Position numbers and translations under genes: made by a program. A DNA stretch of 64,000 bases from Candidatus Babelota bacterium (GTDB taxonomy: Bacteria; Babelota; Babeliae; Babelales; CAIQNR01): NCBI GenBank assembly GCA_965658655.1, contig CBFHTA010000002.1, forward strand, positions 175,841 to 239,840, in the 5' to 3' direction. Of the stretch, positions 47,264-64,000 are shown one piece after another. How positions within the stretch are numbered: the stretch's first letter is position 1; every line of letters begins with the position of its first letter. The notes beneath the pieces are model-generated. The model did not search any database and was not told where the DNA came from. It was given only the letters and a program-made list of their open reading frames with translations.

Positions 47264-47292
47264 TTGACAAACCACAGGGAGATTTCTAGGGT
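47264..47292 (+). promoter_or_regulatory. Sigma70-type promoter for the beta-helix operon
   Basis: TTGACA-17 nt-TAGGGT, followed by AAGGAAGG RBS and ATG at 47329. Confidence 0.55.
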
Positions 47293-47328
47293 AAAATCTA
47301 GTATTTTCTTAAAAAAGGAAGGTAGGTA

Positions 47329-48942
47329 ATGAAAGCTCTTTTAAGGGTCATCGCGCTCTCACTGTGCGCCCTCTCTGTTTTGCACGCCAATTCCTCTCGT
47401 CAATCATCCCCCAATTTTCATTACATGCGTGCACTCTCAAAAACCGATTTTGTATCTTCCGGTGGTACCACATTAGTAAAAACATTTACTATCTCAAACC
47501 CTGGAACATATACTTTAGCCCAAGACATTGGCTATCAAGCACATAACAATAGCACAGCACCAGGTGAATCTTGTGCCATCTATATTAACTCAAGTGACGT
47601 GGTCCTCGATCTTGGTTCTTTTACTCTCTATAGCAACTCAAATGTTGCAGAAGACTCTGCAACAAAAGCTATCGATATTAATACTCATAAAGATAACATT
47701 ATTATTAAAAACGGTAATATTAACGGTTTTAGTGAAACAGGTGTGAATATTCGCTCAAGTAGTCGAAGTATTCATCTGCAGGATATAGCCATTAACGCTT
47801 GTGGTGTATATGGCATTAGTTGTGTAGGAGCGGCAGGAATAGAAAACATTAATGCAGGCATATTAATACAAAATTGCCGTGTAACCGATACAACTAGAAC
47901 AAACAACATGGGAGTACGGATTACCTTTACAGAAAACATTATAATGCAAGATACCTCTGTTGGATTTGGAAACAATGATACTGCAGGTAGCGAATCGATT
48001 GGCATTCTTTTTTCAACTTGCACCAATATACAATGTAATAATGTAAGTTCTGGTGGCCACTATGGAGATGGAGCATTCGGATATAAACTCACTGATGTAC
48101 GCGGTGGAATCTTTGAGAACTGCGTTTCTCAAGGTAATTATGCTATTGATTCTACAAGTACCGAAACATGTGTTGGTTTCTTTGTAGAAACATCAACAGC
48201 AGTGCAACTTAAAAATTGTAAGTCATATGGTCATGCTGCAAAACGAGAAGCTCAAGGATTCTTCTATGGCAATGCTATTGGTTGTCTTACTGAAGGCTGC
48301 ACCGCAAACGGTATTAGAATGGAAAACTTAGATGCATCAGACCCAGAACACCCACTATTTGCAGGATTTTTCTCTCTCAACGGTTTCAGCAACACCTGGA
48401 AGAACTGCATTAGTGAAAGCAATTACGCAGGAAATGCAAGTACTACAGATGGAGATGGAGCAATTGGCTTCTACCTTTCCTCAGAAGCACAGTCAGCCCT
48501 TATTAGCTGCAAATCTCGTGGACATGGATCCATTTACAACCACGCTGCAAATGCTATTGGAATTTATCTTGATGATACACGACGATACAAAGTAACCGAC
48601 GGTAATTTTATGAAAAAAGAAGATTGCCAATTTTGCCAAGTAACTAGCTGCGAAGCAAGTTCAAACTGCACTTCTGCATCAACAGGAGTAGCCGGCACAA
48701 AAGGAACCTATACAGCCTATGGCATTAGAGATGATTCCGCGAACACAAAAAACATTATTATTAAGTGTTTTGCATTTGGCAACTCAGATAGTGCTTCTCC
48801 CCGGGTGGTAACCAACTACTATATGGATCTTACTGTTGGAGCAACAACACCTGCAAATTGGCCAAGGATAGAAACAAATATGGATGGTTTAATTGATTTA
48901 GCAAATACACCGGACTTCTATAACGTAAGTATTACCAGTTAA
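47329..48942 (+). CDS. Secreted Cys-rich right-handed beta-helix (pectin-lyase-like) protein 1
   Basis: Signal peptide; ISNPGTYTLAQDI, INSSDVVLDL, IKNGNINGF; repeated GF...NC.S.GN coils. Confidence 0.85.
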   Translation: MKALLRVIALSLCALSVLHANSSRQSSPNFHYMRALSKTDFVSSGGTTLVKTFTISNPGTYTLAQDIGYQAHNNSTAPGESCAIYINSSDVVLDLGSFTLYSNSNVAEDSATKAIDINTHKDNIIIKNGNINGFSETGVNIRSSSRSIHLQDIAINACGVYGISCVGAAGIENINAGILIQNCRVTDTTRTNNMGVRITFTENIIMQDTSVGFGNNDTAGSESIGILFSTCTNIQCNNVSSGGHYGDGAFGYKLTDVRGGIFENCVSQGNYAIDSTSTETCVGFFVETSTAVQLKNCKSYGHAAKREAQGFFYGNAIGCLTEGCTANGIRMENLDASDPEHPLFAGFFSLNGFSNTWKNCISESNYAGNASTTDGDGAIGFYLSSEAQSALISCKSRGHGSIYNHAANAIGIYLDDTRRYKVTDGNFMKKEDCQFCQVTSCEASSNCTSASTGVAGTKGTYTAYGIRDDSANTKNIIIKCFAFGNSDSASPRVVTNYYMDLTVGATTPANWPRIETNMDGLIDLANTPDFYNVSITS

Positions 48943-63011: not shown

Positions 63012-63023
63012 AAAAAGGTTATT

Positions 63024-64000
63024 ATGCTATTTCTTATTTTATTTTTTCCACTAATTGTACATTGTTCAGAAAACAATCTTGATAAAATCCTAACTTCAAC
63101 CCATGCATTAAATAAATTAACTCTACCTCTCTCTGCATTTTTACGTACATCTACTCAAAAGAAAAAAAACATAACGATTGCAGCACGACCAAAACCTAAA
63201 AAAGATGACGACAAGAAAGACGATAAGAAAGACGATAAGAAAGACGATAAGAAGAAAGATAAAGATCTCAAAAAAGTTATCGCAGCCGTTATAAAAGCCT
63301 TACAATCAGGAACTTTACAAGGCGATCAAGGTCCTGAAGGCCCTGAAGGGCCTGAAGGAAAAAAAGGAGACAAGGGACCAGATGGAAACAAAGGCGCAAC
63401 CGGAGATCAAGGGCTGCAAGGTCCTGATGGTGACAAAGGACCAGACGGTGATCAAGGACCACAAGGTGTAGTTGGTGACAAAGGTGCAACCGGAGACAAA
63501 GGTCCTACTGGTGACCAAGGCCCAGATGGAAACAAAGGTCCCGATGGTGATAAAGGTGCAACCGGCGATCAAGGGCTGCAAGGTCCTACTGGTGATAAAG
63601 GACCAGACGGGAACAAAGGTGTAGATGGTGATAAAGGCGCAACCGGTGATCAAGGACCAGACGGGAACAAAGGTCCTGTCGGTGACCAAGGTCCCGATGG
63701 AGACAAAGGTGTAGTTGGTGATAAAGGTGAAACCGGTGATCAAGGACCTGTTGGAAATAAAGGCGCAACCGGTGACAAGGGTCCTACTGGTGATAAAGGT
63801 GAAACCGGTGATCAAGGGCTGCAAGGTCCTGATGGTGACCAAGGACCAGATGGAGACAAAGGTGCAACCGGTGATAAAGGTCCCGATGGTGACAAGGGTC
63901 CTACTGGTGATAAAGGTCCCGATGGTGACAAGGGTCCTACTGGTGATAAAGGTGAAACCGGTGATCAAGGGATGCAAGGTCCTGATGGTGACCAAGGACC
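63024..64000 (+). CDS. Collagen-like protein (Gly-X-Y repeats), truncated by the window end
   Basis: ATG at 63024 after [18 protein letters not shown] signal; in-frame GXY repeats from 63321 ([21 protein letters not shown]...), about 75 triplets visible; absent from the ORF track because no stop is reached. Confidence 0.93.
63207..63254 (+). repeat. 12-nt tandem repeat, four copies, encoding DDKK
   Basis: GACGA(C/T)AAGAA(A/G) four times. Confidence 0.9.

Follow-up and report, generated by a model that had tools for sequence, protein, structure and literature searches.

A candidate surface-fibre operon containing a duplicated AlgE/OprD-fold barrel in a Babelota bacterium

Why does a gene for an outer-membrane barrel sit in the middle of an operon of beta-helix proteins in a member of the Babelota, a phylum described in PMC6561590 and PMC4776705 as intracellular parasites of protists? 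The operon lies in a stretch of 64,000 nucleotides, hereafter the window, that forms the end of contig C2 (CBFHTA010000002.1) of a 929-kb genome assembled in four contigs (C1-C4) at 95% completeness, and consists of nine co-directional open reading frames (ORFs) whose signal peptides were assessed by eye. Here we report its analysis in this genome (G000) and in a comparison set of 261 genomes of the phylum, the 260 others (G numbers) all belonging to the same order, Babeliales, as well as in individual loci (L numbers). NCBI gives barrel and aspS proteins of genomes in this order the names Candidatus Babeliales, Dependentiae or TM6. The barrel proved to be a tailed paralogue of a phylum-core barrel and recurs beside helix genes in several families. 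We tentatively favour the reading that the operon is a surface fibre or adhesin kit of this protist parasite, with the tailed barrel serving as outer-membrane anchor rather than as export channel.

The barrel gene B (positions 55059-57404, forward strand; 781 aa) encodes a predicted outer-membrane protein in which an N-terminal helix (residues 46-101) precedes the barrel domain (residues 107-763, 18 strands in the model) and a basic tail forms the C-terminus. Phenylalanine, tryptophan and tyrosine make up 14.1% of its residues as compared with 9.4% in our composition baseline of 447 genome ORFs of at least 250 aa, in agreement with the aromatic barrel-like gene that an earlier sequence-only reading had placed mid-operon. 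A fold search with the model returned the AlgE/OprD fold, with 13% identity to AlgE (PDB 4xnk), and the model has the 18-stranded AlgE-like fold of the alginate export family PF13372, a cluster of which is listed in the Atlas at 0.96 as a lead for B. The PF13372 profile did not match B itself; it matched four of 40 homologues, the best at E 0.003, below the standard Pfam cut-off. The 18 strands and the missing POTRA domain set the model apart from the 16-stranded, POTRA-bearing Omp85 type, of which the genome has two matches, both elsewhere than the operon, and the autotransporter barrel PF03797 was not found in the genome by a search with positive controls. Model and fold search thus concur with the sequence-only reading that the barrel is unlike TpsB/Omp85; the autotransporter barrel is likewise excluded, and the helix proteins carry no fused barrels, the modelled one (H2) ending barrel-free.

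In the tree, B belongs to a tailed clade paralogous to a core barrel that is present in 256 of the 261 genomes, so that what had been proposed as a distinct export system is instead built on a paralogue of a phylum-core AlgE/OprD-fold channel. Both clades keep the motifs of loops L3 and L7 and the residues R167, R401, R500 and R502, and the conserved arginines suggest that the core barrel could be an anion or nucleotide channel. In the tailed barrel, loop conservation is clade-specific, the outer loops concerned being L2, L6 and L7, and shortened copies show loss of loops. The core copy of the studied genome (C1:174086-176140) is located between nfo and aspS, near two secretin genes. Tailed barrels of family f13 (L040:1595-4765, L071, L078; P0113, P0116) bear long Thr/Pro-rich C-terminal extensions, reaching about 890 aa in P0113. 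A further divergent paralogue clade occurs in families f12 and f18 (L047, L048, L049, L050), with tandem pairs adjoining an 1800-aa gene in L047 and L048.

Tailed barrels were called at 500 bits or more (12 genomes), the other full-length copies scoring at most 440 bits, a gap that arises partly by construction as most of the former were in the profile; G015 was added by the tree, and G137 was assigned by score only. In ten of the resulting 13 genomes, across four families, a helix gene is the direct neighbour of the tailed barrel, and this adjacency persists despite shifts in gene order and chromosomal site, which bears out the linkage expected from a gene-neighbourhood survey of relatives. 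The barrel of G252 fills its 4-kb contig, and G011 and G015 have only shortened tailed copies at contig ends, where no helix gene was seen; a barrel fragment in G250, outside the tree, adjoins helices. Among 36 metagenome loci, 32 are core copies without a helix gene and three of the four tailed loci have helices, with L093 resembling a duplicate of G014. No statistic is attached to these counts because related genomes are not independent. In one genus (L119, L123, L036, L039), the tailed barrel has multiplied into two or three shortened copies next to a unit resembling an ABC transporter, and helix genes dwindle.

Four helix genes precede B and two follow it on the forward strand: H1 (47329-48942; 537 aa), whose C-terminal half is paralogous to H4; H2 (48959-50536; 525 aa); H3 (50560-51753; 397 aa, the ATG at 50560 being chosen as start); the long H4 (51783-55037; 1084 aa); H5 (57422-58933; 503 aa); and H6 (58945-60330; 461 aa). 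The cut-off of the Pfam family Beta_helix (PF13229) is passed by all except H1, which matches H4 at E 4e-85. Cysteine (2.0-3.5%) and asparagine (9.1-12.8%) exceed the baseline values of 1.1% and 4.5%, and H3 shows no glycine enrichment; the description of six Cys/Asn/Gly-rich beta-helix paralogues therefore stands for fold, Cys and Asn and fails for the glycine of H3. The model of H2 is a right-handed beta-helix (pLDDT 89.5) with a C-terminal tail of lower confidence in the monomer; this tail (residues 486-525) terminates in the family motif N-[VI]-S-[IM]. The closest solved folds are the AlgE4 epimerase module, NosD, phi29 gp12 and tailspikes. The eight best predicted viral matches all come from giant viruses, with 12-17% identity, a structural hint in favour of the proposed analogy to giant-virus fibrils, to which our searches added no sequence-level link with either giant-virus proteins or phage tailspikes.

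Irrespective of the presence of a barrel, the helix family ends in a conserved strand, N-[VI]-x-[IV], found in 94 of 114 complete helix ORFs versus 18 of 202 other ORFs with a pattern tuned by eye on the helices; N519 is 93% conserved among the aligned proteins. Ten of the 18 long members, every one of these ten encoded at a barrel-less locus, have N-terminal extensions with coiled-coil-like periodicity, which supports a stalk-and-head fibre design for the family. Giant helix proteins of 1400-2300 aa form tandem arrays in L066, L063, L060, L065 and L091, with long repeats preceding the beta-helix head and a coiled-coil-like period in L066, L063 and L091.

If the operon is a fibre kit, its beta-helix, phage-like and collagen subunits would be displayed on the cell after Sec export and folding in the periplasm, probably into trimers, as the analogous tailspikes and the coiled-coil stalks of the longer members suggest. 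Type II secretion through one or other secretin of the genome might then carry them across the outer membrane to dock on the barrel at its clade-specific outer loops (L2, L6 and L7). There they could help the bacterium to attach to the protist host, to be taken up by it or to survive inside it. Sec plus type II secretion would be the simplest route for folded subunits, because the genome has two secretins and two Omp85 proteins and no autotransporter barrel was found in it.

Several observations weigh against the fibre kit with a barrel anchor. Helix genes occur in 84 of the 261 genomes, and in 72 of these no tailed barrel was detected. Four genomes (G026, G045, G122, G202) carry helices of the barrel-linked type without the paralogue, and locus L119 has three tailed barrels directly after yebC with no helix gene in 23.5 kb. 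The C-terminal motif is equally common in barrel-less arrays and hence not barrel-specific; codon bias ranks of 67-285 among 666 for eight of the nine genes (the collagen gene being unscored) are non-extreme for a major coat; and the collagen gene described below is missing at this place in a same-genus genome, which has two V genes. Ten helix arrays that were opened (L057-L066) showed no barrel in the fetched stretch. The arrays of families f2, f3, f11 and f15 form a separate helix clade (0.972), a separation that the helices of the four genomes named above do not share.

Some of these points lend weight to a different explanation, possible although doubtful in our view, in which the tailed barrel is just another channel for solutes or anions, regulated together with surface genes, and the helices are displayed without it. 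Such a channel would fit the near-universal core copy, the L3 and L7 motifs and four arginines shared by both clades, the persistence or multiplication of barrels where helices are unseen (L119, G011, G015), and the many helix genomes without a paralogue. It accounts poorly for the direct adjacency kept in four families through changes of gene order and site, and for loops that are conserved within one clade and lost in shortened copies.

A bolder proposal, which we consider unlikely, is that duplication of the AlgE/OprD-fold core porin gave rise to a device for handling proteins, docking or exporting beta-helix fibres by means of the C-terminal strand they have in common, that the core copy may do the same where the duplicate is missing, and that the Babeliales bear a virus-like fibre coat, made of components that phages and giant viruses also use and served by a kind of outer-membrane system not yet described. 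Narrower and improbable is the idea of a dedicated translocator through which many helix passengers are threaded after recognition of that strand. The enrichment of the motif at helix ends, the conserved N519, the low-confidence tail in the monomer model and the failure to find an autotransporter barrel in the genome would all suit a translocator; the AlgE/OprD fold, the model without POTRA and the motif in genomes lacking the paralogue do not. In AlgE, according to PMC4118822, half of the lumen is taken up by loops L3, L7 and L8, which narrow the pore to about 5 A, and since the L3 and L7 motifs of these lumen-filling loops are kept in B, their conservation argues against a role of B as a protein conduit.

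The helix proteins could alternatively act on glycans, either binding or modifying one that the barrel exports, as in an AlgE/AlgG-like unit, or degrading those of the host. Catalytic motifs of mannuronan C5-epimerases (DPHD), PL9 (Asp and Lys) and GH28 (NTD, DD, RIK) are not matched by the helices, the PL9 acidic and Lys motifs aligning to non-catalytic consensus residues. Among 99 aligned helix sequences, only D107, D459, E403 and Y74 reach 50% when D, E, H, K, R, Y and W are counted singly, and position 140 is K or R in 67%. The helix proteins are thus likely non-catalytic, judging from their sequences, although the invariance of H244, E386 and D468 in the H1/H4 group means that a subgroup-specific catalytic site may exist there at H244/E386. 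Intact polysaccharide-lyase active sites, named beforehand as grounds for rejecting a structural role, did not turn up, the known lyase and epimerase motifs being missing. The DPH motif characteristic of AlgG and AlgE epimerases in PMC4444821 is found in none of the six helices, and no synthase or glycosyltransferase occurs among the nine genes, which makes a glycan unit quite improbable.

Least probable is the disulfide-crosslinked coat, similar to chlamydial OmcA/OmcB, that the sequence-only reading had envisaged: a Cys content two to three times the genome average and some Cys pairs spaced 3 or 5 residues apart would agree with it, but a single register in each coil holds most of the Cys (N-C-x4-N, five residues before Asn), in ladders expected to point inward, and DsbA, Thioredoxin_4, DsbB and VKOR were not found in the 95%-complete genome by searches with positive controls.

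The fibre kit anchored by the tailed barrel, which we tentatively favour, would include two further proteins. V (60342-63011, forward strand; 889 aa) matches phrog_1645, 'virion structural protein', over residues 394-888 (E 3e-34), its C-terminal half also matching cyanophage virion proteins, and the last gene (63024-64000, forward strand) encodes a collagen-like protein with 75 Gly-X-Y triplets, cut by the contig end; the earlier identification of a phage-structural-like and a collagen-like protein was correct in both cases. The V family is present in 19 of the 261 genomes and adjoins a helix gene in nine of the 12 loci holding V, most of which had been retrieved because of their helices. On contig C4, a further 78 triplets (C4:1-762) stand at the very start, and behind them come another V gene, a repeat gene that is unrelated, and dnaE; the C2 collagen probably continues there, a join based on synteny with no exact overlap. 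V and collagen make up a second module, which this genus has combined with the barrel module, because the same-genus genome has no collagen here, V recurs beside helices, and in one relative 106 collagen triplets are fused to a V domain.

A C-terminal strand matching [WF]-x-E is shared by 24 V-family proteins and lacking in the 25th, V' (C4:780-2207). The collagen just upstream of V' ends in a strand of this type, W-x-E occurring near the end of one of 652 other ORFs. Strand complementation linking stalk to head would explain this pattern, as would the decay of a gene fusion; downstream of V' the sequence is similar to the beginning of dnaE, a hint of a rearrangement. Two signal-peptide proteins on C4 (2380-4461 and 9911-11767) contain Cys-rich GSWSxSCHSC repeats, which we take to resemble cyanovirin-type lectin repeats.

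The layout of nine co-directional genes with very short gaps was confirmed, the gaps measuring 16, 23, 29, 21, 17, 11, 11 and 12 nt. Once the C4 continuation is counted, the operon probably has at least ten genes, because dnaE comes after the cluster in G001, G003, G023 and L094, as on C4, and it seems to have arisen by fusion of a helix-plus-barrel module with a helix-V-collagen module. The single promoter proposed for it, a sigma70-like candidate TTGACA-17-TAGGGT (47264-47292, forward strand), is present in the sequence, and TTGACA or TTGACT recurs upstream of the first operon gene in five of nine related loci examined. It is absent among the 43 sites of a consensus promoter scan, which themselves number fewer than expected by chance (shuffle mean 56.6). 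Elsewhere in the genome, the end of C1 and the start of C2 hold tandem signal-peptide genes with eukaryote-like C2H2 zinc-finger repeats and HTGEKPF-type linkers.

On the attachment of Babelota to protists and their entry into them, the available text of the C. destructans paper goes no further than a derived pilus channel and surface antigens whose function is unknown. The parts of the operon have known folds, and neither the barrel family nor the locus is described in the literature searched, which consisted largely of the beginnings of abstracts without supplements. The analysis names a phylum-core outer-membrane barrel, its duplicated fibre-linked branch and three subunit families to look for in the proteomes of particles from cultured isolates. 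Should the barrel prove to bind or export proteins, this would add to the AlgE/OprD fold a role for which the same literature contained no report.

Among known systems, the alginate export porin AlgE (PF13372), encoded with AlgG in the alg operon, shares the barrel fold with B, which departs from it in sequence (13% identity), in its far larger loops and in having an N-terminal helix and a basic tail. The alg operon is unlike the present one, in which six helices without DPHD are accompanied by V and collagen and no synthase or TPR scaffold is found among the nine genes, the rest of the genome being unsearched for these two. The capsule-anchoring barrel Wzi (PDB 2ynk; 9% identity) binds polysaccharide, whereas the ligand proposed here is protein. 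Two-partner secretion (TpsB/TpsA) and autotransporters/Pmp resemble the operon in that a separately encoded barrel stands beside secreted beta-helix proteins; the TPS-domain Pfam family was listed for none of the six helices at E up to 0.1, and the search with ShlB matched no control either. Phage tailspikes and giant-virus beta-helix proteins resemble the helices in fold, at 12-17% identity. In contrast to these viral proteins, the operon genes encode signal peptides and keep one place in the chromosome, after ruvB-yebC, which argues for cellular genes.
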